Positions 32,991 to 61,830 of a stretch of 64,000 nucleotides of DNA are shown here, piece after piece. Made by a program: the position numbers and the translations under genes. Within the stretch, counting starts at the first letter, position 1, and each line of letters opens with the position of its first letter. The DNA is from a virus (taxonomy: Duplodnaviria; Caudoviricetes). The DNA is taken from IMG/VR virus record IMGVR_UViG_3300031992_000042, positions 32,001 through 96,000 of that record; one strand, written 5' to 3'. Under the pieces are notes generated by a model. That model had not been told where the DNA came from. It worked only from the letters and a program-made list of their open reading frames with translations, and made no database searches.

Positions 32991-35414
32991 ATGAAAATGA
33001 TCCAGAAGCTAAACCTTATCGAAAATAAGGTTGACACCATCTCTCTGTTCACGTCAGCGTTCACAGACAAACTCGATGCTATGAGCATCGATCCCAAAGA
33101 CGCAATCGTCAAGATTTGCGCAGAGTGCCCTAAGAACGATGAAGCAGAAGCTATTGTCAAGGCTACACTTGCGAACTATTGCGCCGAAGGTTATCTCCTC
33201 GGAGAGAACATTTACGATGCATTTTGCGCTGGTGCTAGCGATGCTCGTAAAGCTACAGCTACTTGGCTTCGGCACGATCTCGTTCCTGAACTTGGCAAGT
33301 GGGCTATGTGTGGGTTGAACACCAAGAACATGAAACTCGCTATTAACAAGTACATGGCATACATCGGATTGCTGTTCTCTGCAAGCAAGCCTTTCGTCGA
33401 TGTTTTCGGCAAGAAGATTGACATTCGTCGTGTCGCTGTTATCAAAGATACAGATGTTGTCGTTAACGCAGTTGCAGATCTTGTGACGATGGAATCTGTG
33501 TCTCGTAAGGTTAATCGCGAGATGGTTATCAATGCATTTGATGGATGTGGAATCCATCGCTATGAACTTACAAACGGCGAAGCTTGCACTTTAAGAGACG
33601 CTTGGATGAAGATCTGCAGTTTCCCTGTAAAGTGGAGTAAACTGTTTGGTTTCTGCTGCGACCGTGGCATCAAAGCTACGTTTGTAGACTTCTGGGGTAA
33701 TGAGATCGCTCTGAAAGACGTGGATCTTATTATCACGGAGTCTTGCTTCAAAACAATTAAACTGTATGAATCTTGGGAGCAGTATTGCAGCGCTCACGAA
33801 GCTCTTGGACATGAAATCCGTGTCTGCGTACGGGAGCACGCTCCGAAGCTGAAGGGACTTCCTTATCAGCAAGGTCAGACTCTGATGGGTAACGAAGACG
33901 ACGCAATGTCCTTCGCTATGCATGCCAAGAAAACGGTGTACAAGTATCATGACATAGCTGGCGCACCGAAACTCCTCCGTGGCGCTCATCAGCAGGCTGC
34001 AAAGATGTATCCTGCGCTGATGACTGAAGGTCATACTAAACGGGCAATGCAGGAAATGTACACAACCAAACGTAACGATATGCTCGGCGGACGTATCCCT
34101 GAGCTTGGTTACAATGCGTTTCTCGCTCCTGATCCGGTTGCATTTGCAGAGCATCTGTTCGGACTGGAAATCAAAGGCTTCCTGAAAGCAGGAGAATGCT
34201 ATTGCTCGAACTGCAAGGAAGGTCTCGTTGATGTGACTCGGTCTCCGCACCTGGACAACGCACATGTCCTTCTGAACAACGTGACTGAATGCCCGCTGGC
34301 AGAAGGTCCTACGATGTTCATCAACATCTTCGACACAACTACTATTCAGCTTCGTGCTGACTATGATGGCGATCATGTATGGTACAGCCAAGACGAACAT
34401 CTGCTTCGACTGGTTGAAGAAACCTACGAAAAGCTGAACAATATTCCTGTTGATTGGGATGTTGCTAAAACAGATAAAGTCCAGATCACCAAGTCTGGAG
34501 TTGCGAACTTCATCATCAACCTGATCCACGGATCTGAAATCGGCTTGTATGCCGATGCTCTGACTAAGATGTGGAATCAAGCTTACGATCAGGACGTCTG
34601 TGATTGGTTAACTTATGCAGCTAACGTTCTTATCGATGCTGCAAAGCATGCGACTGTGAAGATTAAGAAACCTGATGCGGTTGTCGAACTGAACAAGGTT
34701 TCTCTTCCGCTGTTTGCAATGTATGCCAAAGCGGATGCTGACCGTCCTGTCGGTGACTATTGGCTGAAAGAGCGCAAAGTCATGACTCGTCGCGGAGAAG
34801 AAGTAAATCTGCCTCCCCGTTGTGCTTATTCTGGATCTTTCTTGGATATGTATTCTAAGAAGGTGCAAGAGAACGTGACTGAAACGCTGACAGTCGAAGG
34901 ACTGGATAACGAAATCTTCGACGTCACCAAGATGATGTTCGACGCGCATCGCAAGATCGGCAAACTGTCTGGTCTGTCCAAAAAGGGCGTTTACAACGAA
35001 CAGACTGGCAAGTTCAACGACTGTGGTCTCTTCCAAGAGATTGCCTTTCGGCACAGCACCGAATGGAACAAACTGGTAGGAGAAACTTCCTTCTTTGCTC
35101 ATCGCCGTGAGTGGGAAGAAGAAGTTGCGAAAGCTGCCCGCAAGGAGATCATCGACTGGGCTCGTGCTCAGTACGAAAATACTTCTGACATCTCCGATGA
35201 ACGCATTGAAGATGCTTGCTATGACATAATTGTCCGTAACATTTACGGTACAAAGATGAGTGATGGCATGGACACTGTAATCAAACAGGCGTTCTGGAGA
35301 ATCTATGGAGATAAGGCTGTGAAGGCTCTGAAGCAGAACCTGAACGAGTCTATCCCGGACTTCGATGACGAAGAGTTTGAAGAGCTCTTCGATGTAAGTG
35401 ACTGCGATTGCTAA
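32991..35414 (+). CDS. Single-chain two-barrel RNA polymerase (YonO-like), copy 1
   Basis: AFDGCG...LR, VTRSPHL, catalytic ADYDGD, IDAAKH; AGGAGG RBS. Confidence 0.85.
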   Translation: MKMIQKLNLIENKVDTISLFTSAFTDKLDAMSIDPKDAIVKICAECPKNDEAEAIVKATLANYCAEGYLLGENIYDAFCAGASDARKATATWLRHDLVPELGKWAMCGLNTKNMKLAINKYMAYIGLLFSASKPFVDVFGKKIDIRRVAVIKDTDVVVNAVADLVTMESVSRKVNREMVINAFDGCGIHRYELTNGEACTLRDAWMKICSFPVKWSKLFGFCCDRGIKATFVDFWGNEIALKDVDLIITESCFKTIKLYESWEQYCSAHEALGHEIRVCVREHAPKLKGLPYQQGQTLMGNEDDAMSFAMHAKKTVYKYHDIAGAPKLLRGAHQQAAKMYPALMTEGHTKRAMQEMYTTKRNDMLGGRIPELGYNAFLAPDPVAFAEHLFGLEIKGFLKAGECYCSNCKEGLVDVTRSPHLDNAHVLLNNVTECPLAEGPTMFINIFDTTTIQLRADYDGDHVWYSQDEHLLRLVEETYEKLNNIPVDWDVAKTDKVQITKSGVANFIINLIHGSEIGLYADALTKMWNQAYDQDVCDWLTYAANVLIDAAKHATVKIKKPDAVVELNKVSLPLFAMYAKADADRPVGDYWLKERKVMTRRGEEVNLPPRCAYSGSFLDMYSKKVQENVTETLTVEGLDNEIFDVTKMMFDAHRKIGKLSGLSKKGVYNEQTGKFNDCGLFQEIAFRHSTEWNKLVGETSFFAHRREWEEEVAKAARKEIIDWARAQYENTSDISDERIEDACYDIIVRNIYGTKMSDGMDTVIKQAFWRIYGDKAVKALKQNLNESIPDFDDEEFEELFDVSDCDC

Positions 35415-35467
35415 AGATTAAAGCTGCGCTATCGGCTATACGGGCTATTGAGAAAGGAGAATGAAAA

Positions 35468-35884
35468 ATGAACGTTTACTTTGTGTGTGATGGATTTTAT
35501 CCTTGCTTTGTTCAGTCTCAGGCTATTTACGACTTCGATAAAGCTATGAAATGCTACGAAGAAGTAAATGAATATCAGCCGATGGATCTATTTAAACTCA
35601 ACGGCGAAACTGGAGAACTTTCCTGTTACGACTGCATGGAAGACACGTTCTATACTGGAAGCAAGGTTTACATTGTTGTCAGACGTCCTGCAAACGTTAA
35701 CTATCCTGAAACTGTTATCTGCGACAATGGCATCTTCAACAAACTTAAAGATGCAGAAGATTTTATAGCATTGAATGGTGGTTCATGGAAACTGTATTCA
35801 CACCAGGGACTTATCGATAAACTAAATGAGAGCGAAAGAATTAAGAAAGAAGAAATTCCAGACGAAGATGAACGTCCATTCTAA
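35468..35884 (+). CDS. Hypothetical protein with an SSB-like acidic tip (DEDERPF)
   Basis: AAAGGAG RBS; followed by a terminator. Confidence 0.6.
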   Translation: MNVYFVCDGFYPCFVQSQAIYDFDKAMKCYEEVNEYQPMDLFKLNGETGELSCYDCMEDTFYTGSKVYIVVRRPANVNYPETVICDNGIFNKLKDAEDFIALNGGSWKLYSHQGLIDKLNESERIKKEEIPDEDERPF

Positions 35885-35889
35885 TAATT

Positions 35890-35915
35890 AGCCAGTCGAA
35901 AGACTGGCTTTTTTA
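35890..35915 (+). terminator. Intrinsic terminator
   Basis: AGCCAGTC-GAAA-GACTGGCT followed by a T run. Confidence 0.85.
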
Positions 35916-36185
35916 TTTTTTACGAGTATGGCATTAAACCTGACTAAAGATTCATACACGGGAGTCTCGAAAGAGACTCTCGTAATGAGTCCTTAGTGAC
36001 TCTGGTATAATTTTACCCGACGACTATTTTTATCGGCTCCAAAATTTAGGGGCGGGATATTTTTTTGGGGAGCACGATGTTTCCGGTCTTAACTCACGTG
36101 ACTTGATCTAAAAAGACGGCGCAAGCGCCTGCTAATGCTGTGAAGATAAGTCTTATCTTCGTAATAATATTTGGAGGTGCAGACC

Positions 36186-36413
36186 ATGAATCCCATTGAC
36201 CTGTTGAACGAAGCAAAGAATCAGAGAATGTTTCTCGAAGCTGACAAGAAAGAAATCGAAGCTATCGAGGAAGAACTGAAGACTGGAGACACCAGCCGCA
36301 AACTCAGACTGGAAGAACTGTTCGAATTGGTTGACAGCCATATCAAATGGCTTGAAACTCACGCTCAGGAAATGAGCGAATCCGCACGACTGCTCAGAAG
36401 AGTCGTTGCGTAA
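36186..36413 (+). CDS. Small coiled-coil hypothetical protein
   Basis: GGAGG RBS. Confidence 0.55.
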   Translation: MNPIDLLNEAKNQRMFLEADKKEIEAIEEELKTGDTSRKLRLEELFELVDSHIKWLETHAQEMSESARLLRRVVA

Positions 36414-36891
36414 TACCTGCCACGACTACTGCTTTGCGCTGGTCAAGGTGGAAGAACCTTGTATGCATCCTCTGCTCATCCACGTTGGTGAGCGGAATTA
36501 TGCATACAGGGACGCTTTCAAGAACAGGTGGCACGAAAAACTGTTCTTGTCTGACATGTCCTACATGAAGTTTATCGTTTCGAAGAGATGCCAGCTCTGA
36601 CTGACGATAGCTGCACGGGTCCCGGGGGATGACGGGTCCCCTGGGGTTTGCCCGAACTTTTATATCGATATTATCTTAATCTTCATCGCTTCAGCGTTGA
36701 AGCGACTGAAGCGAGCTTCATGGGTTCCTCCTTTCTTAGGGACTGGCGTGGGAAACCAGTCCCATCCTTTCGTTAATTTGGCTTCGTGAGCTGTGCCATA
36801 AACAGCTCACTTTTTTTGTCTTAACCATGCTACTTGGCTTTAGCGACGGCGCAAGCGCCTGCTAATACCACGAACAAATCTCTACAAGGAG

Positions 36892-37350
36892 GTGTTAATT
36901 GTGCTAGAGATTATTGCTCATACCGATGGTTCGTGTTTAGGCAACCCCGGAGTTGGCGGATATGCCGCACGAATGGAAGCTAAAGGCAAGATTAAGTTTT
37001 GCCAAGGATACGAGACTGAGGACACGACTAACAACCGAATGGAACTTTGCGCTGTTATTCGTGTTATGAAGTGGTGCAATGCAATTCAAAAAGAGCCTTG
37101 CAAAGTGACCTTCTATACAGACAGTCAGTATCTTATCGACTGCTTCAAGCATGACTTCTCAGACCTGTCTTCTAACTCTAGAGCGAACAGTGACTTGTGG
37201 GTTCAGCTTATTAAAGAAACGCTGAACGGACATCACGAAATTTCCTTTGTGAAAGTGAAAGGTCACAACGGAAACATGCGCAACGAAGAAGTAGACAAAC
37301 TTGCAAAAGCGCAAGCGTTGAAAGCGAGGCATGAACGTTATGGAACTTAA
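36892..37350 (+). CDS. rnhA: Ribonuclease HI
   Basis: HTDGSCLGNPGVGGY, TTNNRMEL, YTDSQY, NSDLW, VKGHNG...NEEVDKLA. Confidence 0.92.
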   Translation: MLIVLEIIAHTDGSCLGNPGVGGYAARMEAKGKIKFCQGYETEDTTNNRMELCAVIRVMKWCNAIQKEPCKVTFYTDSQYLIDCFKHDFSDLSSNSRANSDLWVQLIKETLNGHHEISFVKVKGHNGNMRNEEVDKLAKAQALKARHERYGT

Positions 37351-37427
37351 AGCACACGTATTATCCTGTTTCGTTTCTTTGGCATCAGCTTTGGTTGTTG
37401 CCGCATTATTACTTGGAGGAATCTAAC

Positions 37428-37574
37428 ATGTGGGATGAAATACTGAAAAGCTACGACAATTTGGATGACTATTTCGCAGATCACCCAGAAGAATACGATG
37501 ACTACGTAGATGACATGTACGAACTCTACGGGCACGAAGAGCCTATCGACTATCCTGAAGACTGGGCGGTGTAA
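37428..37574 (+). CDS. Small, very acidic and aromatic peptide (48 aa)
   Basis: GGAGG RBS; MWDEILKSYDNLDDYFADHPEEYDDY... Confidence 0.5.
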   Translation: MWDEILKSYDNLDDYFADHPEEYDDYVDDMYELYGHEEPIDYPEDWAV

Positions 37575-37576
37575 TA

Positions 37577-37834
37577 ATGCAGATTCTTGATAATGTCATC
37601 ATTCTTTCTTTGCCTGTGCTTGCATTTATTGCAGGCAAGATTATTTCTGACAGATACCATGAACGTCAGATTCAGGAACTTGAGTATCAGCTTCGACTGT
37701 ATGCCGCTGAACGTGGAGTGGGTTACGTTGCTCCTCCTGCAAAGCGTAAGTATGTCCCTATAGGTCAACCTTTTATGGACAAGCTGAAAGAGAACGGTCA
37801 TGCTACCCAAGCTCTTCGGAACCCTCATACTTGA
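37577..37834 (+). CDS. Small membrane-anchored hypothetical protein
   Basis: N-terminal hydrophobic segment. Confidence 0.55.
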   Translation: MQILDNVIILSLPVLAFIAGKIISDRYHERQIQELEYQLRLYAAERGVGYVAPPAKRKYVPIGQPFMDKLKENGHATQALRNPHT

Positions 37835-38069
37835 CCTAACGAGACGGCGCAAGCGCCTTCTAATTCTATGAAAAAGGAATCTTCATGATTCTTTTTATCG
37901 CATGAATGAAATCCATCACTCTTCGTGCAAGTGGCGTCACGTACCCACTATAAATACCGCCGCGTGATAGTCTGCATCGGACGATAAAAGATGGCGTTGG
38001 TCTGCACGAATCTGAAGCAGGCAGAAATACAAAACAAGTAATAAAAAGCAAATTTCGGAGGTAACTAAA

Positions 38070-38459
38070 ATGACTACATTTGTTGGTAATATTTCTAAGG
38101 CTGCAAACACCCGTTACGTTGAAGCTCTGCATACGACTGTGACCGACTTTAATGTCGCTGAGAACTATCAGGGTCGTAACGGCAAGCGGTATACTCAGTT
38201 CTACCGTGTCAGCATCTGGGATAAGCGTGGCGCTAACCTCGAGAAGTACCTGACACTGGGTCGTCCGATTCAGATTTCCGGTCGTGTTAAGGCTTCTGCC
38301 TACATCGACAAGGATGGCAAGGCTCAGGCTCAGCTCGAGATTGCGAATCCGCAGGTAACCTTCATCACTGCGAACGGCGCTCCTGAAGAAGTGGATGCCG
38401 CCGCCGCTCCCGAAGCTCCTGTTGTGGACGAGATCCCGGAGGACGACAAGCCCTTTTGA
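38070..38459 (+). CDS. ssb: Single-stranded DNA-binding protein, copy 1
   Basis: OB-fold pattern (GN...F.VA...F.RVS.W...L..G...G) and acidic tip DDKPF. Confidence 0.85.
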   Translation: MTTFVGNISKAANTRYVEALHTTVTDFNVAENYQGRNGKRYTQFYRVSIWDKRGANLEKYLTLGRPIQISGRVKASAYIDKDGKAQAQLEIANPQVTFITANGAPEEVDAAAAPEAPVVDEIPEDDKPF

Positions 38460-38747
38460 TAAGACACTCCTCGGCATGGTGAGGAGACTATTTAAGTAAG
38501 ATTAAGGAGTCAGACTTGATGGAAGTCTGGCTCCTATTTTTTACTTAACCCTGTTTTTTGGTATAGCCTGTCTCTTTTGTTTCTGCTGTCGCAACATGAC
38601 AGTAGACATAAGAAAGATAGTTCGGTACCTAAATTTGAAGACTTTCTAAGATGGCTATAAGGGGAGGAGAATTTTTGGGGGCATATATTTTCTGTGCCGC
38701 AGATTTTTTGTAAGCCTCTTACATTTTTTAAGATAGGAGAACAATCG

Positions 38748-39050
38748 ATGACAGAAAAAATAGCTATGCTGGCAGAAGACACAGAGACTGTTATTAACTT
38801 TTGCAAGCACAACATCGGAGACTGGGCAGAAGTATACACGACAGACAAGGCGGTAATGAAGCGGTACGATAAGTTTATGCGGAACCATCCGGAGTGCTGC
38901 CGACTGGTAGGAGAAGACAAATACTCTATGACGTTTAGCGTAGACCCTAAATGTGCATCCTATTTTCCAAGAGCCCCTCGTAAAGTTAATTATACAGAGG
39001 AGCAAAAGCGACTGCTTACAGAACGTTTAGCCGCCGTAAGAAACAGATAA
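38748..39050 (+). CDS. Hypothetical protein
   Basis: AGGAG RBS before MTEKIAML. Confidence 0.55.
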   Translation: MTEKIAMLAEDTETVINFCKHNIGDWAEVYTTDKAVMKRYDKFMRNHPECCRLVGEDKYSMTFSVDPKCASYFPRAPRKVNYTEEQKRLLTERLAAVRNR

Positions 39051-39374
39051 GCACAGAATATAGTTTCTTGCCTAGATAAACACAAGTGACTTGTGACTGG
39101 AAACATACTCTATACAGAGAATGAGTATTTGTTCGTCCTAAAAAGCTAATCCGAAGCAATATGAAGTGAGTTCTGTAAAAAAAGGAGATAAACCTATGAC
39201 TGAAATTAGAATTTATCCTGAACACGACAAAATTGTCGTTACGCATGAATGTTCTGACCCTGACGACGCACTGATAGAGATGGTTTCTGCATATAAAGAA
39301 TGGGAAGACGATGGATGGGAATATTATCGTATGCCTTTGTCTGAATTTATGAAAAACTTTAGGAAGAACGACTG

Positions 39375-40020
39375 AAGACTTATCTTTTAGTTAATGTCTT
39401 AACGTTTAGTGACTGATCTTATCTGTTTAGACTGTCTATACTAAAAAGACATAATCTTCACTTGTTCAGATTAGTCTTTTTAGAATTCATTAGTCTTATC
39501 TGTCAGTTAAGACTCTATTATAAAGTCTCACTTACAACTTAAATTAACGTTCCTCTATATTCCCCTTTTATGGGGAATATAGGGAACGTATTAAACGAAT
39601 AATCTGTACTTATCGTTAAGTAACTGAACGTTTAGTCTCTTAACTGACTATATAGCCTTATCTTTCAGTTAAGACTCTTCTTTAAAAGATTATTCTTAAA
39701 GATAAGTCTATAATATATATATAATTATTATTATATAGAAGGAACTTTTCTAAATATGATTAATTAATCTAAAAATGATAAGACTTATCTGGTTTTAAAG
39801 ACTTTATTTAGGGGATAGTCTTTACTGTAGAGACTTTATTGTTTAGTAGAGATTAATTCTTTCAATAAAATACAATACAAAAAAGATTAGTTTTACATAA
39901 CAGTAAAGATCTATTCTTTCAAAATAATTCCTATTCAAATAGTCTTAACAACATTATCTAAAATAATTCTCTAATACTTAAACAATCTATAAACGATAAG
40001 ACTATCTAAAAGATAAGGAG
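39375..40020. other. AT-rich non-coding region with short AGACT/AGTCT/TTATCT repeats and a long hairpin; candidate replication origin
   Basis: No ORF of 60 aa or more; CAGTTAAGACTCT occurs twice; hairpin at 39548-39589. Confidence 0.45.
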
Positions 40021-40028
40021 AGACTGAA

Positions 40029-40196
40029 ATGAATTTTATAGCCGAGGATAAGATGTCGAAGAAACAGCGGGCGGAAATTAACAAAGCGCGAAGAATACAA
40101 TGGGACTTTAAACCTACGACTCGCGTTAAACCTTCTGCAAAAGTCTACAACAGAAAGAGGATAAAATATATATGCGATACAAAGAAAACGAATTAA
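40029..40196 (+). CDS. Small basic hypothetical protein
   Basis: AAGGAG RBS; MNFIAEDKMSKKQRAEINK...KVYNRK. Confidence 0.55.
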   Translation: MNFIAEDKMSKKQRAEINKARRIQWDFKPTTRVKPSAKVYNRKRIKYICDTKKTN

Positions 40197-43217: not shown

Positions 43218-43402
43218 GCCTATGGAATTATCTAAGAATGACAACAGAAATCTAAAAGCATTTGGTCTGCATGAGCATACTTGTTATGTGTGCGGCAAAG
43301 AATTTGAATGTAGAGTTGATTATGTATATAAAAAATATACTACAAGGTCTAAAGGAACAGAATATTATTGTTCTTATACATGTATGAGGAAGGCAGAAAA
43401 AA

Positions 43403-43657: not shown

Positions 43658-43666
43658 GGAGTTTAT

Positions 43667-44693: not shown

Positions 44694-44793
44694 CGTTCGC
44701 CAGCCGCAAGCGGCTGGCATTATACTTTGAATTTATTTTCTCTTTCTTTCTTGACTTAACCTAGTTACAGAAATACAGGATGGACTTACAATA

Positions 44794-45413: not shown

Positions 45414-45425
45414 AGGAGATAAAAA

Positions 45426-46211: not shown

Positions 46212-46212
46212 T

Positions 46213-46497: not shown

Positions 46498-46511
46498 CGA
46501 GGTGAATAAAT

Positions 46512-47795: not shown

Positions 47796-48192
47796 GTGGG
47801 ATAATATAAAACGATTTTATACTACTATGTTTAGTTATAAAAACTATCTATAACTACGTTTGTTCTGCTAAATAAAAAAGCTTAAAACTCTAATAATTTC
47901 AACGCCAACCGCAAGCGGTTGGCACTATACCGTGAACTCCTGGTACTTACCATCGGGCACCAGCGATCTACATATAATTTATAGAATATTCTAAGAAATA
48001 ATGTTTGATAAAATGAAAAGAATATTTCTGTAATTAAAAAGCAATTTCTCTGTAAAAGATGAAGGTGTGTCAGAGAAATAGCAAGCAAAATTTGACATTT
48101 TCTGTGCGATAACACCTCCTCGCACATGACCGAAAAGAGAGACTGGTGTATTGATGGGGCATCAGCCTCTCTTCTTTTTAAAGGAGATTTAC

Positions 48193-49063: not shown

Positions 49064-49177
49064 TTAGTTCGGTACCGAAACTTGAGACCTTTCTAAGTTT
49101 GGTATAAAGGAGAAGGATATATAGTTAGGTACCGAACTTTGAAGCCTTTCTAAGTTATGCATAAGGGGAGAGAGCAC

Positions 49178-49263
49178 GTCCAGATGTCCGAGCTTGGTTT
49201 AAGGAGATAGTCCTGAAAACTATTGAGTGTAATGCTCCGCAGGTTCGAATCCTGCTCTGGACG
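49178..49263 (+). tRNA. tRNA-Ser(UGA)
   Basis: GTCCAGA/TCTGGAC acceptor, ATAGT-CCTGAAA-ACTAT anticodon arm, long variable arm, G discriminator; C at position 33 is atypical. Confidence 0.8.
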
Positions 49264-49272
49264 CTTTTATAT

Positions 49273-49314
49273 GCGGATATGATAGAATCGGCAGGTTCAA
49301 CTCCTGCGTCCGTA
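49273..49314 (+). ncRNA. tRNA minihelix-like remnant (acceptor stem and T arm only)
   Basis: GCGGAT...GCAGG-TTCAACT-CCTGC-GTCCGT-A. Confidence 0.45.
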
Positions 49315-49435: not shown

Positions 49436-49867
49436 ATGCATGATTTATCTAATTACAATATTTATACTTGTAAAGATGGCAGAGTTAGAGCATATAACAA
49501 AATAACTCATGCTGTAACATCCTATCCAAGATTACTAATGGAAATAAAACTTGGACGACCTTTATTAAAAACAGAAGATGTTCATCATATTGATGAAAAT
49601 CCGCAGAATAATAACATTGAAAATCTAGAAGTTGTTGATCATCGCGAGCACGATAGGCAACATGCACGAAAATATTTTGATAAAGAAATGATATGTCCAA
49701 TTTGTGGCAAAACGTTTATTTGGACGGCATATCAACAAGTAAAAAGAGCTGGTAATATGCAAAGAAAAAATAGAATAATACCTAAAATCGGACCATGTTG
49801 TTCTAAATCATGTGCTGGTAAAGCAAGTGCAATGACAATTAAAGAAAATAAAAGAAAGGCTGTTTGA
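49436..49867 (+). CDS. Free-standing HNH homing endonuclease
   Basis: R...E..LGR.L...EDVHHIDENPQNN.IENL.V....EH; C-terminal CPIC...CS..C. Confidence 0.85.
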   Translation: MHDLSNYNIYTCKDGRVRAYNKITHAVTSYPRLLMEIKLGRPLLKTEDVHHIDENPQNNNIENLEVVDHREHDRQHARKYFDKEMICPICGKTFIWTAYQQVKRAGNMQRKNRIIPKIGPCCSKSCAGKASAMTIKENKRKAV

Positions 49868-49881
49868 CAGCCTTTATATAT

Positions 49882-51071: not shown

Positions 51072-51072
51072 C

Positions 51073-51590: not shown

Positions 51591-51637
51591 ATTGTTTATT
51601 AGCTTTTAAAGCATATTTATATAAAATTTGAAAAAGG

Positions 51638-52166
51638 ATGGTATGTATGAGAAATGGATATAAAATGCTCTTTATGCCAGAACATCATCGTGCAGATATA
51701 ACAGGATGTGTTTATGAACATGTTATTGTCGCAGAACAAAAAATAGGACGAGAATTAAAAGATGAAGAAGTAGTCCATCATATTGATGAAAATAGAAGTA
51801 ATAACTCACCAGAAAATTTAATGGTTTTTGCAAATACAGCAGAACATAGTGCTTATCATGCCACACATGAGGCATATCAGATTGATAATATTTGGTATGC
51901 ATCAAGAAAAAGAAAGCCAAAAGAATGTAAAATTTGTGGCAAAATGTTTATTCCTAAATATAAAAATATAAATTATTGTTCGCATAAATGTGCACAAAAA
52001 GCTAATAGAAAATTACCAGATATCGACCAAGTTGTAAATGTACTTCGAAAAAAACAACGGCAATATGAGTGCTGTCAGCAGAATTTTTAATGTTACTCCT
52101 AATGCAATTGTAAGAATACTTAAAAGAAATAATTTGCCATATCATAGTAATGATTATGCAAATTAA
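51638..52166 (+). CDS. HNH homing endonuclease; C-terminal HTH displaced by an apparent +1 frameshift in an A7 run (52048-52054)
   Basis: VYEH..VAEQKIGR.L...EVVHHIDENRSNN.PENL; alternative frame NGNMSAVSRIFNVTPNAIVRILKR. Confidence 0.75.
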
Positions 52167-52174
52167 ATATATAT

Positions 52175-52248
52175 GGCTCGTTAGCTTAGCCCGGTAAAGC
52201 AGCCGCCTGTTAAGCGGAAGAGCGTAGGATCGAAGCCTACACGAGCCG
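52175..52248 (+). tRNA. tRNA-Asn(GUU)
   Basis: GGCTCGT/ACGAGCC acceptor; CCGC-CTGTTAA-GCGG; atypical T loop ATCGAAG. Confidence 0.8.
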
Positions 52249-52251
52249 CTT

Positions 52252-52373
52252 TGGGAAGTAGTTTGGAGAGTCCAGCGTAAGACTCCATAGAAAAGTAAGA
52301 GCTAGCGCAGTTCTGAATTCGCTGGTAAAACGGCTCTACGCAGCAGATACTGGTTCGAGTCCAGTCTTCTCAA
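52252..52373 (+). ncRNA. tRNA-like RNA with a large D-loop insertion and a degenerate anticodon arm
   Basis: TGGGAAG/CTTCTCA acceptor, GTTT...TGGTAAAAC D arm, ACTGG-TTCGAGT-CCAGT T arm. Confidence 0.5.
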
Positions 52374-52744
52374 CTTGCTCTCTTAATGGGATACAGAGAG
52401 CGTTTGTACCTCCTTTCAGGTTGAATAAACATTGCTCCGATGTTTACAGTTGCCGCTGGTTTAGTAGGAGCGCTTTTTGCCAACCGCAAGCGGTTGGCTT
52501 TATACCGTGAATCCTATAACTAATTTACAAGTCTTAACCTGTTACATTGATTATAGGATATTTTTTTATGCCCTGACACGTAAGTTCTTAATGAATGGCT
52601 CGTCTCCATTCGGGGTAAACTGCATAACTCACAGAAAAGTGTGAAGCACTGCGAAGAGTTTGGATAGCATCTCTGGAAGTTCTCGTGCTATCCGCTGATC
52701 ATCATCTTATTTATAAGAAAATTTGATTAATGGAGGGATGAAAG

Positions 52745-53353
52745 ATGATCAAAGTTACTCTTATTAGCACCAATGGACGCAAGACCGACATGTTTGCAGA
52801 ACATCAGACTCCGCGTGAAGTATTTGAATACTTCGATGTTGATTATTCCGTCGCGACAAACACTATTGATGGTGTCAGGATTGGTATCGGTGACATGGAC
52901 AAGTCTCTGAAAGAGCTTGGCGCAGGAGCTGAATGCCGTATCTCGTCAATTGTTAAGACCGATAATGCTGCGCACATTGATCTGACTGGCGCTGCGGCTG
53001 TTCTGGTTTCCGATGTGAAACTGGAAGACTGGAAGCGTGTCGAAAAGTACGCACCGGAAGCTCTGAAAATCGTCGATGAAGAAGGCGATGTTGTCTTCAA
53101 GGTTATGACTTGTTGCTGCACTGGTTCTGTTAATGAAAACGGAGTGTGTTTCGGCACATACACCAACGAAGGCGGTCTTGCAACTGTGACAGTTCTGATG
53201 GACGATGAAGTAGAAGATCGTCTTCAGGCAATTAAAGATGTTGCTGGGCAGGCTCTGCTGGATCTGAATGATATTGAAAAGGATATTCCTCAGATTCTGA
53301 AGGACATTGAAGAGAAAGAAGCGGAGATTGAAAAGCTGATTGTAGCTAAGTAA
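52745..53353 (+). CDS. Ubiquitin-like (beta-grasp) domain fused to a C-terminal domain
   Basis: N-terminal ~75 aa have a beta-grasp pattern (IKVTL...TPREVF...IDG...DKSL.ELG....I..IVK.DNA); first gene of the E2-JAB-E1 cluster. Confidence 0.65.
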   Translation: MIKVTLISTNGRKTDMFAEHQTPREVFEYFDVDYSVATNTIDGVRIGIGDMDKSLKELGAGAECRISSIVKTDNAAHIDLTGAAAVLVSDVKLEDWKRVEKYAPEALKIVDEEGDVVFKVMTCCCTGSVNENGVCFGTYTNEGGLATVTVLMDDEVEDRLQAIKDVAGQALLDLNDIEKDIPQILKDIEEKEAEIEKLIVAK

Positions 53354-53366
53354 TCTCCGATACATA

Positions 53367-53398
53367 GGGGCTGAGGTTAAACTCAGCCCCTTTTTTTA
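53367..53398 (+). terminator. Intrinsic terminator between the Ubl and E2 genes
   Basis: GGGGCTGAG / CTCAGCCCC stem followed by T8. Confidence 0.85.
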
Positions 53399-53427
53399 AA
53401 AATTATAAGGAGATTAAAAGTACAAAA

Positions 53428-54846: not shown

Positions 54847-55657
54847 TCTGTCGAATGAGGCAATAGAAAAATTATACGGTGAATTTCTTGAAAAATTCAA
54901 GAATGAAATAGCAAATTACGGTTTTAACGGCGGTTCTTCGATGACAATTAAAACTAATTTCGAAGAAGTTGCTAAAGAAAAGGTTATTATTAGATATACA
55001 CAGGAAGCGTTCTTGCGTATGCAAGCGTTGGTAGATTTCTTTGATTCTGAAGTTGCATGGTATGGGCTTTGTGAACGGCTCGGAGAAAAAGAATTTAGAG
55101 TGTATGACGTTAAGGTTTGTAAGCAAGAAGTTACAGGAGCTAAAGTAGATACAAGCGATGAAGACACTTTAGAATTCTTCTGCAGTCTAACTGATGATGA
55201 AGCTGAACATTTGCATTTTCAGGCTCATAGTCATGTGAAAATGTCTACTGGAGCATCAGGTACGGATATTCAGAATCAGCAGGATGTTGTAAAGAATATG
55301 GGTAAGACTGGTTATTATATTTTCCAGATTTGGAACAAAAATAACGATATTAATACTTATCTGTATGATTTAGATAATAATGTTTTCTATGATCGAAAAG
55401 ACGTAATGATCGTGATCGAAGATAGCCTTGGAGATCTGGATGACTTTATTGCATCTATTGCTGATTGTGTTGTAGAAAAGAAAACATATCCATATCAGTA
55501 TAGTGGAAGTGGCTATGCTGGAAATTACTATAATAAATCCGTAGAAACGAAAACTCCAAAAAAAACAAAAGAAAACGAAGAAGATGACTACGACACGGTC
55601 TATCTAGGAGAATATTATGATGGTATTCATGGATATTATGGAAGGAGCGATTGGTAA
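54833..55657 (+). CDS. JAB/JAMM metallopeptidase (deubiquitinase-like)
   Basis: EVAW...HSHVKMSTGASGTD matches E...HxH-x7-S-x2-D; AAGGAG RBS before MRPIN. Confidence 0.85.
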   Translation: MRPINLSNEAIEKLYGEFLEKFKNEIANYGFNGGSSMTIKTNFEEVAKEKVIIRYTQEAFLRMQALVDFFDSEVAWYGLCERLGEKEFRVYDVKVCKQEVTGAKVDTSDEDTLEFFCSLTDDEAEHLHFQAHSHVKMSTGASGTDIQNQQDVVKNMGKTGYYIFQIWNKNNDINTYLYDLDNNVFYDRKDVMIVIEDSLGDLDDFIASIADCVVEKKTYPYQYSGSGYAGNYYNKSVETKTPKKTKENEEDDYDTVYLGEYYDGIHGYYGRSDW

Positions 55658-56329
55658 TTGAATTTATCAAAAAGCTTTGAGTTTTTTAATCCTGAAGTGT
55701 GTATAGATACTATTCATATTATCGGCTGCGGTTCAGTTGGTTCAACCGTAGCCGAACTTCTTGCTAGGTTTGGTTTAAAAAATGTTAAACTTTACGATTT
55801 CGACTTTGTAGAAGAGCATAATTTGGCTAACCAAATGTTTACAACAGAGAACTTGTATAAACCAAAGGTTGAAGGCGTATATGACCGATGGGTTTCTATC
55901 AATCCTGAAGCCGCTAAAACAATTAAATTATATGGTGACGGTTGGACAGGACAAAAATTAAACGGTTATGTATTTCTGTGTGTAGATAACATTGAACTTC
56001 GCAAGAAGATCGTAGAAGAAAATAAGTATAATCTGAACATTAAAGCAATGTTTGACTTTAGGACGAGTTTAGATACAGCGCAGCACTATGCAGCAGACTG
56101 GTCTAAGCCTAAAAGTATTGAAGCGTTGCTTGATACAATGGATTTTACTCATGCAGAAGCTGAGAAGAATACTCCAATGAGTGCTTGTAAAGTTTCTTTG
56201 TGTGTAATGCCAACTGTTTGGTCTGTGGCAATGGCTGGTGTAGTAAATTTTGTAAATTTCGTTAAAGAAGGCAAATTAGAACAGGCTGTTATTACAAGAC
56301 CATTTGCATTTGATACTCTTATTTGTTAA
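55658..56329 (+). CDS. E1/ThiF-family activating enzyme
   Basis: IIGCGSVGS, DFDFVEEHNLANQ, KPKVE, CVDN..R, candidate catalytic Cys in SAC. Confidence 0.9.
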   Translation: MNLSKSFEFFNPEVCIDTIHIIGCGSVGSTVAELLARFGLKNVKLYDFDFVEEHNLANQMFTTENLYKPKVEGVYDRWVSINPEAAKTIKLYGDGWTGQKLNGYVFLCVDNIELRKKIVEENKYNLNIKAMFDFRTSLDTAQHYAADWSKPKSIEALLDTMDFTHAEAEKNTPMSACKVSLCVMPTVWSVAMAGVVNFVNFVKEGKLEQAVITRPFAFDTLIC

Positions 56330-56330
56330 T

Positions 56331-56850
56331 AAAGTCCATCAACTTCGGTTGGACTGTTTATGTTATAAATAGTAACGCTTTGCCCGGTAGGAGACGACGG
56401 GCCAAATGCCCAGACGGCTGGAGGTGCTGCACTGCTTACTGCTGAAAGAGGCAAATCAAATTAGAAAACCTATAAAATAACTAATTTACACCTATTCAAT
56501 TGAAGAAATTCACTTGAATCAACCATAAAGTCGCCTGGGAAAAGAAGACTGAATCTTAATTTAGTTTATAAACAAAAGAGTATTAAAAATATCATATAAA
56601 GACCTTCAACTTATGTTGGACAATTTATGTTATAAGTTGTAACTCTTTGCCGGGGAATAGTGAAACGACGCGGGCATGTCTGAAGAACATTCCACTCCCG
56701 AAATCATCGTAGAACAAAATGAACTGCTACTATACAAACTGAAAATTAAAATATTCAGTATTAACAGAACCATTAAGATAAATAGACCAATACGACGGAC
56801 GTCAAGAAACTCCCTGGGATCTCCTAATTTAGTTTATATGATACAAGAAA
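56331..56850 (+). ncRNA. Two tandem ~270-nt units with conserved ends upstream of the RT (putative msr-msd-like RNAs)
   Basis: Both units share TCAACTT..GTTGGAC..TTTATGTTATAA.T.GTAAC.CTTTGCC.GG, ACGACG, CCTGGGA and TAATTTAGTTTATA; middles are divergent. Confidence 0.6.
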
Positions 56851-56861
56851 AGGAAGTAAAA

Positions 56862-58004
56862 ATGATTTATATTACAACAATGCAGCATAGGAAGCCAAGG
56901 CAATTATCTTGGGAAGATGTCATTATGGAAAAAGAAATTTTTAATGATTTTACTAATGACAAGTCTTCATCTACTGCAACAATTACAAGAAAATACGAAG
57001 AAGTAAAAGAAGAAGTTCTTAACAGAATTAACGTAGATGCTATGATTAGATGGCTAAAACAGTTTAATGATTCGAATAAAGAACTGTTTGAAGCAGATCG
57101 TAAGTCTCTGTATTCGTCGTTTAAGATTCCGAAAACGACTGGTGGATTCAGGCAAATTGATGCTCCTTGTGAGAAATTGCAAGACGAATTACAACGATTG
57201 GTACATTTCATTGGGGATGATTGCGGTGTGCTGTATCATACTGCTGCGTTCGCCTATGTAAAAGGCAGAAGTATTGTTGACTGCATAAGGAAACATCAGA
57301 AGAATGAATCTATGTGGTTTCTGAAAACAGACTTTAGTGGGTTTTTTCCAAATACTACTTTGAATTTTACAATGAAAATGTTGTCGATGGTATTTCCACT
57401 GTCTGAAGTATGTAAAAGAGAAGATGGATATAAAGAATTAGAAAAAGCAATCAGCCTTGGATTCTTGAACGGTGGACTTCCTCAAGGAACTGTGTTGTCT
57501 CCGATGCTTACAAACATTTTTATGATTCCGATTGATCATAAATTGTTTAATGAATTGGCGGATCGACACATTGTTTATACACGATACGCTGATGATATTC
57601 ATATTTCAGCTCAGGAAAAATTTCCTTGGCAAGAAATTGTTAAATTGATTGAAGATACGCTAAAAGAATTTAATGCGCCTTGGGTAATTAAGAAAGAAAA
57701 GACACATTTTGGTAGTAGAAAAGGTCGCAACTGGTCATTAGGATTAATGCTGAACAGTGATAATAATATAACTGTTGGATGGAAGAAGAAACAATATTTC
57801 AAGGCTGCGCTATGTTCGTTTATTCTTGATACAAAGAATGGCAAACATTGGGATATTGGAGATGTTCAACATCTTCGTGGTCAATTGTCCTATTATACAA
57901 TGGTTGAAAAAGATTATTTTAATAGCATTATAAAACAGCAAAATAAGAAATGGAATGTAAATGTAAACGATATGTTTAAAGCATATCTCAATGGAACTGT
58001 TTGA
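56862..58004 (+). CDS. Retron-like reverse transcriptase (380 aa)
   Basis: F.IPK..GG.R.I.AP, H..AFAY..GRS, KTDF..FF, LPQG..LSP, YTRYADD, KEKT; AAGGAAG RBS before MIYIT. Confidence 0.85.
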   Translation: MIYITTMQHRKPRQLSWEDVIMEKEIFNDFTNDKSSSTATITRKYEEVKEEVLNRINVDAMIRWLKQFNDSNKELFEADRKSLYSSFKIPKTTGGFRQIDAPCEKLQDELQRLVHFIGDDCGVLYHTAAFAYVKGRSIVDCIRKHQKNESMWFLKTDFSGFFPNTTLNFTMKMLSMVFPLSEVCKREDGYKELEKAISLGFLNGGLPQGTVLSPMLTNIFMIPIDHKLFNELADRHIVYTRYADDIHISAQEKFPWQEIVKLIEDTLKEFNAPWVIKKEKTHFGSRKGRNWSLGLMLNSDNNITVGWKKKQYFKAALCSFILDTKNGKHWDIGDVQHLRGQLSYYTMVEKDYFNSIIKQQNKKWNVNVNDMFKAYLNGTV

Positions 58005-58035
58005 CAAAGAAAAGTCGAAAGACTTATTTAATGTT

Positions 58036-58140
58036 ATTAAATAAAACGAGAAAAGACTACATGTAAATAATAAAACTTGATCGTTCCTGAAGGCGGAACT
58101 AAAGTACCGCCTTCAGGAAGATCAAGTCTTCTTATTTAAT
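58036..58140 (+). ncRNA. Long-hairpin element downstream of the RT, closed by a 9-bp inverted repeat
   Basis: ATTAAATAA/TTATTTAAT flanks enclose a ~21-bp stem at 58075-58127. Confidence 0.5.
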
Positions 58141-58215
58141 CAATACTTTGTATTCAGTTTGTTAAATAGTTAGGTACCTAACTTTGAAGACTTTCTAAGT
58201 TTGGTATAAGGGGAG

Positions 58216-58710
58216 AGAGTTAAGAAAGGAAGGAAGTGCTCCTGTTTTTCTCTCTCTTTAACATGTCTCGATGTTACGCATACGTGCAGCGGTTAGTAGA
58301 GACTTCTGCCCGAAAGGGCAGAATTATATGAGGCTGACAAGTTCACGGCTTGAAAGTCTCTTGCAGTTTGCCAGAACTCATCTGGTGTAGAATATGCTTT
58401 AAAGCGCTTACCGCGTTTAAAGACACCCGTGAGTGTCTAACGCGGTATTTTGCTCTGCTGCGTAAAAGCTTAATGACAGGCTCGCCACCTGTCGGAGTAA
58501 CAACAAAAGACAGTTATACTGTGTCAGATCTTTCCTGATATCTAGATAGTTCGACTAATCATCGGACTACACCTACACATTTTTCCTTTCTGTATGTTCT
58601 GGATAGGTTCTGCTGACAACATAGGATGAACTTTCTCCCCGAGGTTTATCCTATTATGCGGTACTTGCGTAAAGGTTAAATGCAACCTCGCCTGTTGCAG
58701 CCGCCAATTT
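58216..58710 (+). ncRNA. Candidate large structured RNA or 5' leader of RNAP copy 2
   Basis: Starts just after the 58168 promoter; closing stem AGAAAGGA/TCCTTTCT; several GC-rich hairpins. Confidence 0.45.
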
Positions 58711-58992
58711 AATAAAATGAAAGCACCATATAAAGACCTGCATCATATGACGATACTGGTGCTGCAGCAAGTTCACTCGTATTCTTTAAACAAACAGGAT
58801 GTAAGAATGCCCCATGTTGATTTAGAGACCACCAGATACGAGACTTATTGCTGTTGGAGCTGTTTATTATTACGGGTTGGGTTCGTATACCGACATAAAC
58901 AGCTCCTATTTTTTATTACAGAATTAGTAAATCTATCCTTTTGGATTAAATATACGTATCTTAAAAACAACAAAATGAAAGGGGGCCGCGAG

Positions 58993-61830
58993 ATGTCTGT
59001 AAAGACATACTTGCAAGAACAGATTCGTCTTGTATCTTTGTTAAGTAAAGACTTATACACAGATGAAGAAATGATTCTGTACAAAAAAATAATCGATCAG
59101 AAAAATATCCTAGATCTGATGGATGAGAAAGGAGCAGAAAAAGAAGAACGCAAAGCTGTAATCAACGAGAAAAATAAACTAAAAACACAGCTTGATAAGC
59201 TTATTCTTTCTCATGCAGATACGCCAAGAACTGTGAACTTAAAGTCTGTCATCTATTATCCCAAAGATGCAGACTATCCTTTTCCCGAAGGAGTAACTTA
59301 TCGAAGTTTAAAAACAAATAAAAAAATAGCTGAGTTTTGTTGCGAATTATCCCGCGCAATGGGACTTGAAAATTTAGACTGTACTCTTGATTTAATTGTA
59401 ATCAAATGGAAAAACATAGAGATTTTAAGACAACTAGTAGTTAATGGATTTTATATGCCAATTCTGAATAAAGATGGCACAGTAGAAAATAGACACTATC
59501 ATTTTTATACAGCCAGCAGCGGTCAGTTAAGGCGTGATAAGTTCATGGCAATATCTGACAGCACATGGAATAAAATTCATAATAAACTTGAATGCGGTAT
59601 TACTTGGGATGTTATCAACGCAAAAGGCGGGATAAACTCAAATAAGTTAAGTGCTTATGATGCGCTTCAAAATTCTGCAACTGAAGTATGGGAAGATTTT
59701 AATATAGATTCTGTAATTGTAGTCGATGATTATGAAGGCGAAGTTACTGATAGAATGATTTATATTAAACCTGATTATACGTTTGAAAAAGGAATACGTA
59801 CAGTAAAGATAACACATACAGACGGATGTGGAATGATGCTCCCTGAAATATCTGATTCGAATTTTATGATCAGAATACCGTATGGAAAAGGCTTATTAAT
59901 AGTATTTGACTTTATAAGATTCTGCAAAGAACATAATGTAGAACCTATAGTAACTGATATATATGGCAAACAATGGCATCTAATAAACGATAATATTAAA
60001 ATAATTCTGTTTAAAAGTATGTTTAAACTTTGGAAATATTTTAATAACTGGCAAGAGTATAAAGATGAATTCAAGAAGAACGAATGCCATTGCGGAAAAA
60101 CTAACTATGAAGAAGAATTCTTAGCAAATAAAACATTAAATTATCAAATGATAGATACGTTAACAGATTTTACGGATGAAGAAATTAAACAGTTTACAGA
60201 AAAAGAACATGAACGTATCGTTAAGCTCACAAAAGATAAAGATGCAATGCTTGACGTGTTGAAAGCAAATGAAAAAAGTGAGCAACCATATAAGGTTGCT
60301 CTTAAAATTTATCCAGAACTTTTACGTGAAGCTTATGCTCGACAATCTTTAATTGATATTCGTAAGCGAATGTTATTGGATGCTAAATCTGGAAAAATAA
60401 GGAGTTTAAATAAACGTTTATTTGCTTGTCCAGATCTATATGGCGTTTGTGAATGGCTGTTTTTACATGATGAACATCCTAAAGGATTACTAAAAAACGG
60501 AGAAGTTGCATGTAAAATATTTAGACGGCATGAAAAAGTAGACGTGCTTCGAAGTCCACATTTAGCGATGGAACATGGCGTACGAAATATCGTACAGAAT
60601 CAAAAAGTCTATGATTGGTTCTGTACAAATGGATTATATAGCTCGTTGCATGATTTATTAAGCAGATTGTTGCAATGCGACTGGGACGGGGATCAGCTGA
60701 ATGTTGTAGCCGATCCTTTATTTGTCGAAATTGCAGAAAGAAACATCAAGAAATATGACGTTGTACCGTTGTTTTACGAGATGGACAAGGCTCCGGCTGA
60801 AATAATAGACAGTAATACTATGTTCAACGCTTTAAAAAGAGCTCATGACTATTCTGCTGGAGAAATAACAAGTATAGGCGAGATATCTAATATGTTGACT
60901 CGTCTTTGGAATAAAGAAAATCCAGATAGAGATGTTGCTAATCTGCTTACAATGTTCAACAATTTAGTGATTGACGCAGCTAAGAACGGAAAAATAAACC
61001 ATTATAAGAATTATCCAAAGATAGCGAAAAGAATTGGCAAAGCTACCGGAGGTAAAAATGGTCGCATGCCTTACTGGTTTCAATTCTCAAAAAATGGCAG
61101 AAAAGATACGCCAGAAAATAGAAACCGTAAATATGCAGAACCCAATAATTCAACGATGAACCGAATATGTAAAGCATTTGACGATATTGGATATATAAAT
61201 CTAAACTATGCTGGCATTTCTCAGTTCAATTATCAAATGCTTATGTCTGCTCCATGCTATGATTCAAAACCTGAAATTTATCAGTTATTTTGCGAGCTTG
61301 ATAACTCGAATAAATCAAGTATTATTGCTTCGCAAGAAAATACTTATGCTTCAGAGAAGCAACTGATAAATAATTATAGTATAGTAGCGGAAGACATTAC
61401 AAACGAGATCATTCAAAGATATGGTTCATTGGAATATGCCTATCCATATATAGTAAAGTATCTTTTTGCAGGAGAAGGCATGGACAAATCTGCGCATAAA
61501 CAAATGTTCTGGCGTGTGTTTGGAGAAATTGCATTAAATAATCTTCGCAAGAATTTATCAGAATGTGATACGTGTAAAGATTGTTTTATAAAAATACCAG
61601 CATGGGTAGAAGACCATAACTGTATAAAAAATACAAAAGGTTTTTATGAATGCATAGACTGTCATGTTTTATGTGAACGAACTAATCCGAAGCAATGTCG
61701 TTGTACAGAATGCCAATCTGTGTATAAAACATTACAAAGACGGATAAAGCAAAGAGCCAAAAGAGAATTAAAGAAAGTAATTGAAGAACAACGTATTACG
61801 TCCTTGGGATCGTTCTTGAACAAGACGTAA
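58993..61830 (+). CDS. Single-chain two-barrel RNA polymerase (YonO-like), copy 2, with C-terminal Zn ribbons
   Basis: TASSGQLR, HTDGCGM...FMIR...KG, VLRSPHL, catalytic CDWDGD, IDAAK; C-terminal CxxC motifs. Confidence 0.9.
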   Translation: MSVKTYLQEQIRLVSLLSKDLYTDEEMILYKKIIDQKNILDLMDEKGAEKEERKAVINEKNKLKTQLDKLILSHADTPRTVNLKSVIYYPKDADYPFPEGVTYRSLKTNKKIAEFCCELSRAMGLENLDCTLDLIVIKWKNIEILRQLVVNGFYMPILNKDGTVENRHYHFYTASSGQLRRDKFMAISDSTWNKIHNKLECGITWDVINAKGGINSNKLSAYDALQNSATEVWEDFNIDSVIVVDDYEGEVTDRMIYIKPDYTFEKGIRTVKITHTDGCGMMLPEISDSNFMIRIPYGKGLLIVFDFIRFCKEHNVEPIVTDIYGKQWHLINDNIKIILFKSMFKLWKYFNNWQEYKDEFKKNECHCGKTNYEEEFLANKTLNYQMIDTLTDFTDEEIKQFTEKEHERIVKLTKDKDAMLDVLKANEKSEQPYKVALKIYPELLREAYARQSLIDIRKRMLLDAKSGKIRSLNKRLFACPDLYGVCEWLFLHDEHPKGLLKNGEVACKIFRRHEKVDVLRSPHLAMEHGVRNIVQNQKVYDWFCTNGLYSSLHDLLSRLLQCDWDGDQLNVVADPLFVEIAERNIKKYDVVPLFYEMDKAPAEIIDSNTMFNALKRAHDYSAGEITSIGEISNMLTRLWNKENPDRDVANLLTMFNNLVIDAAKNGKINHYKNYPKIAKRIGKATGGKNGRMPYWFQFSKNGRKDTPENRNRKYAEPNNSTMNRICKAFDDIGYINLNYAGISQFNYQMLMSAPCYDSKPEIYQLFCELDNSNKSSIIASQENTYASEKQLINNYSIVAEDITNEIIQRYGSLEYAYPYIVKYLFAGEGMDKSAHKQMFWRVFGEIALNNLRKNLSECDTCKDCFIKIPAWVEDHNCIKNTKGFYECIDCHVLCERTNPKQCRCTECQSVYKTLQRRIKQRAKRELKKVIEEQRITSLGSFLNKT

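Follow-up and report, generated by a model that had tools for sequence, protein, structure and literature searches.

Three putative two-barrel RNA polymerases of the YonO clade in an uncultured ruminant-gut phage

We analyzed a 64,000-nt stretch of DNA (hereafter, the window) that comprises bases 32001–96000 of the 105,695-bp IMG/VR record IMGVR_UViG_3300031992_000042, for which CheckV gives a completeness estimate of 77%. The source is an uncultured phage from the ruminant gut. [quoted passage not shown] It seems fairly probable that these three paralogous single-chain enzymes, all belonging to the clade of YonO and the RNA-dependent RNA polymerases (RdRPs) of eukaryotes, share out the infection cycle among themselves, so that the phage would do much of the transcription itself, in successive stages. 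A sequence-only reading of this DNA had proposed that one phage has three two-barrel RNA polymerases, and the results described below bear out this proposal, with catalytic signatures that are kept under selection.

Two free-standing polymerases and a polymerase domain in the tape measure protein

The two separate YonO-like genes of the sequence-only reading were recovered at the positions given there, A with a DYDGD motif and B with a DWDGD motif. Both match the family phrog_8308 (E = 2e-74 for A and 1e-180 for B) and YonO of phage SPbeta, to which A is 26% identical (tblastn, E = 1e-31) and B 35% (E = 3e-126). In the longest open reading frame (ORF) of gene B, the similarity to YonO starts only at residue ~96–99, and the ATG at 58993 is preceded by a good ribosome-binding site, AAAGGGGG. 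Therefore, the product of gene B is most likely the protein of 945 aa, the length that had been estimated before. In a maximum-likelihood tree, B and its orthologues cluster with the YonO proteins of SPbeta, Perkons, and D-1873 (97% SH-aLRT), and B is thus a YonO orthologue. The A proteins are placed apart from them, in a clade with a long branch (1.7 substitutions per site), so that the phylogeny that had been suggested as a check separates the two lineages; by sequence, A is an older or faster-evolving paralogue.

B aligns with the YonO proteins of SPbeta, Perkons, and D-1873 in the DPBB-B block (DGCG...R.P..KGL), in the RSPH and D.DGD blocks, and in a C-terminal pair of cysteines. The Cys-rich tail of B (window 61550–61830; CxxCxxC ... 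C.C ... CxC..C) is conserved in the B orthologues, whereas SPbeta YonO has the distal Cys pair only and B contains an extra Cys-rich insert. From its sequence, the tail may be a zinc ribbon for DNA or promoter binding. A reverse transcriptase gene (RVT_1, E = 3e-20) is located at 56676–58004, directly upstream of a D1 motif (see below) and gene B.

A and B are only 24% identical. However, the two family profiles align at E = 3.9e-55 over 698 columns, and A is therefore a full-length paralogue, not a fragment, which is colinear with B almost throughout. It also exceeds the Pfam gathering score for RdRP (E = 5e-10). Across 49 orthologues of A (42–91% identical), D184-G185, R202, and K207 of the second barrel (DPBB-B) are invariant, as are R417-S-P419 (R417-x-P419) and D457-Y-D-G-D461, which form the RxP...DxDGD loop of DPBB-A. 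Metagenomes contain over 120 orthologue clusters of A, and several of these are on contigs of 113–148 kb. When PDB chains were searched with the sequences of A, B, and the TMP N-terminus, no matches were obtained, and fold searches were needed. The AlphaFold (AF2) model of A (pLDDT 88, pTM 0.82) was compared with known structures by VIA. It matched maize RDR2 with Z 25.3 (619 residues aligned), QDE-1 with Z 18–19 (608–631 residues), the P23-45-type gp64 with Z 15.8 (430 residues), crAss gp66 with Z 12.8 (546 residues), and P23-45 gp96 with Z 11.1 (356 residues).

The leader of gene A (32757–32990) has features of its own. It contains two adjoining hairpins, the loops of which have the word GTCCCAAA in common, and a 21-codon upstream ORF (32922–32987) that ends within the ribosome-binding site of A. 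When the sequences upstream of this gene from six phages were aligned, no clear common promoter emerged, and the word CTGTCSCAWAGA does not recur at other intergenic sites.

The third polymerase is part of the TMP, in which one 4,682-aa ORF carries both the polymerase core, in its N-terminal part, and PhageMin_Tail. The TMP-fused domain included in the sequence-only reading is indeed present, but it lies outside the region from 32991 to 61830 to which that reading referred, on the minus strand, and its motif is DYDAD, not DxDGD. Upstream of this motif, R893-S-P895 and R620...K626-G627 are found, and these are conserved in the TMP family. A search of 1.8 billion representative proteins with TMP residues 201–1400 retrieved about 35 giant TMPs (3.7–6.5 kaa) and no free-standing polymerase. 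About 30 homologous giant TMPs have D940, D942, and D944 without exception. DxDGD is the consensus of this family, with Ala or Gly by turns in position four of the motif and Ser in one member.

The AF2 model of TMP residues 301–1320 (pLDDT 85, pTM 0.79) resembles QDE-1, both by Foldseek (E = 6e-12) and by VIA (Z 19.4, 538 residues, rmsd 4.3). The VIA scores were Z 15.7 for gp62 of P74-26 and about 9 for the beta-prime subunits of cellular polymerases. QDE-1, RDR2, and gp62/gp64 were at the top of the fold list, and gp96, the TMP-fused polymerase of the Thermus phage P23-45, was not among the 50 entries shown. In an hhalign comparison, the TMP domain and the B/YonO family aligned over 526 columns (probability 96%, E = 2.7e-9), and the barrel motifs were in register. 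A profile built from six TMP domains has yonO as its only match in the genomes of SPbeta (E = 2.8e-8) and Perkons (E = 1.5e-6), in agreement with the earlier statement that SPbeta has one YonO. Because of the hhalign and profile matches, the TMP domain is regarded as a polymerase of the YonO clade. A tblastn search of the TMP N-terminus against 50,697 phage records gave no match; by these sequence comparisons, the cultured SPbeta-like phages are without a TMP fusion. The higher Z-score for QDE-1 than for gp62/gp64, the absence of gp96 from the list, the profile match to YonO, and the lack of a tblastn match make the fusion look independent of the one in Thermus phages and probably separate in origin from gp96.

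Conservation of the three polymerases in related phages

Five related IMG/VR genomes of 121–151 kb (G001–G005) each encode an A protein with DYDGD, a B protein with DWDGD or DVDGD, and a TMP of 4.6–7.3 kaa with DFDGD or DEDGD at residues 900–1140. When a single TMP-domain sequence was used as query, no match was obtained in these five genomes. The domain was then recognized in each of them by profile searches and by inspection for the motif, and the miss was thus a failure of sensitivity. The TMP N-termini of the five relatives match the TMP-domain profile with E-values from 3e-34 to 4e-10 and hhalign probabilities of 98–99%. Although the TMP domains of six phages share only 16–20% pairwise identity, K626, G604, R893, P895, and the three Asp are invariant in all of them. 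A more distant relative of 92 kb (G008) also has all three polymerases (TMP domain, E = 8e-250). Altogether, the trio is present in six related IMG/VR genomes, with invariant catalytic residues. A provirus outside of this group (G006) has one YonO, which is split.

Split YonO genes were observed in two genomes. In G004, the YonO-orthologue gene is distributed over three ORFs at 19462–23998 (loci L023 and L024). One break, with a gap of 311 nt, lies exactly within DxDGD (query residues 656/657), and the other gap is 1.4 kb long. The gene of the provirus G006 (69802–73946) is likewise in three ORFs. Judging from their positions in the sequence, the splits look as if introns or homing elements had been inserted where conservation is highest.

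A host search in species genomes had a 9.7-kb contig of a metagenome-assembled genome from yak as its sole match. The host is probably a gut Firmicute, not Thermus.

Promoter-like motifs and the proposed order of transcription

The structural genes occupy the minus strand from about 31 kb downwards, and coding is on the plus strand throughout from 31.1 kb to the end of the window. Gene B is followed by a single-stranded DNA-binding protein (SSB) gene at 63155–63562, then by genes for a Toprim/DnaB-like primase-helicase and a PD-(D/E)XK nuclease; the earlier placement of B before replication genes was thus correct. Two families of promoter-like motifs were found (Table 1). D1 (five copies) consists of a 16-bp palindrome, AGTTAGGTACCTAACT, followed by TTTGAAG-N15-TATAAGGGGAGA. 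In D3/D5 (six copies), a TA...GTGAA box comes after a GC hairpin, the loop of which is GCAAGC. The D3/D5 series starts directly downstream of A and precedes small genes, RNase H, SSB, and the operon at 52745. D1 and D3/D5 split the plus-strand genes into units, most of which follow intrinsic terminators, and such terminators are enriched (20 versus 7.9 expected). In contrast, matches to sigma-70-type promoters are at the level of chance in comparison with shuffled sequence (21 versus 21.1 and 71 versus 69 expected). A sigma70 region 2 was not found in the 105,695-bp record, which is ~77% complete. In two of the relatives (G001 and G005), D1 is located 30–50 nt before the start of B, and G001 has a minus-strand copy, too. 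D3 lies just downstream of A in six relatives (L004, L005, L006, L012, G001, and G005), about 55 nt before ORFs. The distinct promoter-like repeat families of the sequence-only reading are therefore confirmed in so far as D1 and D3/D5 are conserved in relatives and head separate units.

Table 1. Positions of the polymerase genes, their catalytic motifs, and the promoter-like motifs in the window
Feature	Position	Strand	Details
Giant TMP, 4,682 aa	1541-15589	-	PhageMin_Tail at residues 1757-1964
RNA polymerase domain in TMP	11720-14407	-	~residues 395-1290; candidate virion polymerase
DYDAD metal-binding motif of TMP domain	12758-12772	-	residues 940-944
Large terminase	27488-29182	-	structural operon
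D1 core	30544-30569	-	palindrome missing; head of structural operon
Gene A, free-standing YonO/RdRP-like two-barrel RNA polymerase	32991-35414	+	807 aa
Catalytic DYDGD of gene A	34359-34373	+	residues 457-461
D3	36101-36144	+	hairpin, GCAAGC loop, TAAT..GTGAA; ~30 nt before ORF at 36171
D3	36831-36874	+	after terminator 36786-36810, before RNase H gene 36892-37350
D3	37829-37872	+	upstream of first SSB gene 38070-38459
D1	38618-38667	+	after intrinsic terminator 38505-38535, before ORF 38694-39050 (+)
D5	44696-44732	+	D3-like architecture: GCAAGC-loop hairpin, TATAC.GTGAA-like box
D5	47901-47937	+	
D1, two in tandem	49065-49171	+	directly upstream of tRNA cluster (tRNA-Ser from 49178)
D5	52476-52512	+	upstream of operon from 52745
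D1	58167-58216	+	upstream of gene B
Gene B, YonO orthologue	58993-61830	+	945 aa; longest ORF 58717-61830, 1037 aa
Catalytic DWDGD of gene B	60679-60693	+	residues 655-659 of 1037-aa ORF

The enzyme that transcribes the late (structural) operon in SPbeta is YonO (Forrest et al., 2017, PMC5467207). Hints as to the time of expression of A come from G008, which is TAG-recoded and encodes an 84-nt suppressor tRNA(CTA) at its positions 49228–49311. In-frame TAGs are found in its B gene (six), its TMP gene (18), and its structural and replication genes (1–5 each). In recoded phages, a lack of the recoded stop codon is taken as a sign that a gene is expressed at a time when the suppressor is not yet available. 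The A gene of G008 has no TAG in 961 codons, whereas about 4.2 would be expected (Poisson P ~0.015). In the G008 loci L047–L051, most long genes contain an in-frame TAG. Four of the six TAGs in the B gene align with Leu in orthologues, and this alignment hints at a TAG-to-Leu reassignment rather than the usual TAG-to-Gln.

The orthology of B to YonO, the TAG-free A gene of G008, the motif families, and the analogy to P23-45 together suggest the following cascade. The polymerase domain of ~900 residues at the front of the TMP would be assembled into the tail and enter the cell with the DNA, as proposed by analogy with P23-45 gp96, and it would transcribe the first genes, probably including the gene A operon. 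Polymerase A, a proposed non-virion enzyme, would be made early and would read the early/middle D3/D5 units, which begin directly downstream of its own gene. Gene B might be reached first by read-through; the intrinsic terminator scan found no strong terminator between 53391 and B. As the proposed late enzyme, polymerase B would then read D1 and thus transcribe the structural operon and the tRNA cluster as well as its own gene together with the replication module. In this way, it would amplify itself and, with the structural operon, supply the TMP-polymerase for the next virion.

Several observations weigh against this reading. The TAG argument comes from one distant relative, the A protein of which is 40–42% identical, and the P-value is only ~0.015. 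D1 and D3 were not found in G008, and the motifs can therefore not be linked to TAG-free versus TAG-containing genes. D1 precedes B itself; if B reads D1, B must be started in some other way, for example by read-through or a different polymerase. The assignment of motifs to enzymes could also be the reverse of the one proposed. The TMP motif DYDAD has Ala in a position at which nearly all two-barrel polymerases have Gly. With a record that is ~77% complete, a sigma factor or another regulator could lie in the missing part. Finally, the D1 palindrome has its centre about 41 nt upstream of the TATAAG box, an arrangement that would also fit a host promoter with a dimeric activator. Moreover, if the phage were temperate, it would depend on host RNA polymerase at prophage induction, a stage with no enzyme from a virion. 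The claim of the sequence-only reading that transcription is largely host-independent is therefore not accepted as established.

The same geometry underlies an alternative that we consider unlikely, namely that the host RNA polymerase transcribes most genes and a phage enzyme the late genes only. D1 would then be a host promoter with a phage-encoded dimeric activator at the palindrome, and the extra polymerases would be accessory, serving for example to begin infection in hosts with low transcription or during host shut-off. A palindrome about 41 nt upstream of TATAAG has class II activator geometry, some D1 copies read TGGTATAAG, with an extended −10 box, and a TGGTATAAT box is present at 36004–36012. 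Furthermore, the early genes of SPbeta use the host polymerase (PMC5467207). However, sigma-70-type matches in the window are no more common than in shuffled sequence, and the spacing of 15 nt between TTGAAG and TATAAG in D1 is poor for sigma-A. D1 is also conserved through the predicted start (GGGGAGA), which is typical of promoters of phage-specific polymerases, and the maintenance of three intact polymerases over a wide clade argues for an essential role of each.

It is rather improbable that one of the two free-standing copies is not a transcriptase of phage genes, and that it makes replication primers, uses RNA templates like the eukaryotic RdRPs, or acts in counter-defence, so that there would be three enzymes and no relay. 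The gene neighbourhoods would suit such a role, with SSB, primase-helicase, and nuclease genes after B and RNase H and another SSB after A. The top structural matches of A are RNA-dependent polymerases (RDR2, Z 25.3), and QDE-1 accepts both DNA and RNA templates (PMC9508822). Against this, B is clearly orthologous to YonO, which is a proven DNA-dependent transcriptase (PMC5467207), a Toprim primase domain is already present in the replication module, and two promoter-like motif families suit two promoter-specific enzymes.

It is also improbable that the TMP-fused domain has become inactive and persists as a relic that serves the tail structurally or in the handling of DNA, which would leave two working polymerases. 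In favor of this, DYDAD replaces the canonical DxDGD, the domain evolves fast (16–20% identity between related phages), and a single-sequence query missed it in relatives. Against it, six phages and ~30 family members all retain the three Asp, R893-x-P895, K626, and G604, Ala and Gly (and one Ser) alternate at position four within the family, the entire two-barrel core is predicted with high confidence, and an active fusion of this kind is known in P23-45 gp96 (PMC10770324).

We thus favor a division of the infection cycle among the three paralogues. A more far-reaching version can be offered only tentatively. It holds that a widespread clade of ruminant-gut siphophages with genomes of 120–150 kb might possess a fully phage-owned three-step relay of three descendants of one YonO-like ancestor: first the tail-injected, independently arisen TMP fusion, then A acting on D3/D5 hairpins, perhaps with the early SSB, and then B acting on D1, including the copy at its own gene. 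If true, lytic growth would be possible without need of the host RNA polymerase.

Further observations concern the motifs and the intergenic DNA. SSB genes are present both in the early block, behind a D3 hairpin (38070–38459), and among the replication genes after B (63155–63562). SPbeta has a word similar to the D1 core (G[TC]ATAAGGGGAGA), namely CATAAGGGAGA at locus L040, 8627–8640, 128 nt downstream of yonO. The likeness is a tentative one, as the published YonO start site (B. subtilis 168 coordinate 2225998) could not be located on the SPBc2 record. The region 39250–40030 is a 780-nt non-coding stretch dense in the words GATAAGACT and AGTCTTATC and in GTCTTAAC, which occurs eight times in the window (2.2 expected). 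The same palindrome, as GATAAGTCTTATC, comes after the first D3 motif. From its sequence, this stretch looks like an operator array for a phage regulator.

A lysogeny block on the minus strand at 37.3–39.3 kb was considered and dropped. The longest ORFs in 37300–39300 are on the minus strand and look like antisense artefacts, and the plus-strand ORFs, including the SSB gene, are plausible genes. Words common to the intergenic gaps of both strands were rejected as promoters; they are remnants resembling homing endonuclease or intron sequence. A hairpin with TGAAGAGATAGTCT is common to window 19114–19441 and genome position 98194–98210, and it adjoins an apparent remnant of a homing-endonuclease ORF. 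HNH endonuclease genes are located at 49436–49867 and 51638–52090. Exact k-mer counting revealed mainly coding repeats in tail-fibre genes.

Comparison with known phage polymerase systems

No simpler relatives of cellular RNA polymerase are known than the two-barrel polymerases encoded by phages. To our knowledge, only YonO, crAss gp66, and the two enzymes of P23-45 have been studied. Three diverged paralogues in one phage, each presumably with its own promoter code, would represent a natural experiment on the promoter specificity of minimal polymerases, and the trio bears on the question of how a phage tail can let a polymerase pass through it. Such enzymes with their short promoters are candidates for orthogonal transcription tools, and the trio could serve as an annotation marker for this phage group. 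Template-dependent RNA synthesis has been tested with purified protein for YonO (PMC5467207) and for gp96 (PMC10770324).

The closest known system is that of the Thermus phage P23-45 (and also P74-26, G20c, and TSP4), which has a TMP-fused virion polymerase, gp96, and a non-virion polymerase, gp64, while its late genes are read by the host polymerase (Chaban et al., 2024, PMC10770324). Common to both systems are a giant TMP (~5,000 aa) with an N-terminal single-chain two-barrel polymerase, a genome that also encodes one or more free paralogous polymerases, and paralogy within one phage lineage. The phage described here differs in having two free polymerases instead of one, in that all three of its polymerases fall into the YonO/QDE-1 branch, and in that a YonO orthologue is available for the late genes. 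The TMP fusion would extend tape-measure-delivered polymerases from one group of thermophile phages to abundant gut phages, and it suggests that fusions of this kind arose more than once.

With SPbeta, the phage shares a similar genome size and a similar arrangement of structural genes, and B has the conserved blocks and the C-terminal Cys pair of SPbeta YonO (Forrest et al., 2017, PMC5467207). However, SPbeta and Perkons have one polymerase and no TMP-fused domain, and B adjoins replication genes instead of directly preceding the late operon. Paralogue A is without a counterpart in cultured phages. In the tblastn searches with A and B against the 50,697 cultured or deposited phages, none of the listed records contained two YonO-like places; every one had a single matching place.

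Staged transcription with phage polymerases is known from phage N4, in which the virion RNA polymerase is followed by RNA polymerase II and then by the host enzyme, and from the jumbo phages phiKZ and AR9, which have virion and non-virion multisubunit RNA polymerases. In N4, SSB assists the virion polymerase in reading hairpin promoters. The relay proposed here would resemble the N4 programme in being opened by an injected polymerase, and the D3/D5 hairpins together with an early SSB resemble the N4 hairpin promoters. In contrast to the T7-like enzymes of N4 and the multisubunit enzymes of the jumbo phages, the polymerases described here are two-barrel single-chain proteins, and we know of no member of the N4 or phiKZ/AR9 systems with three phage-encoded polymerases of one family. 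A further single-chain two-barrel enzyme of the RdRP-like clade is gp66 (PDB 6VR4) of phi14:2, a crAss-like phage; this enzyme is packaged in the virion. Unlike the TMP fusion, it is a capsid-packaged protein of 2,180 aa with no tape measure part.

Full-text literature searches retrieved no paper describing two YonO paralogues or a YonO-type TMP fusion. Taken together, the described precedents are two-polymerase versions only, and the set of three polymerases, with the staged self-transcription that it would allow, goes beyond them.

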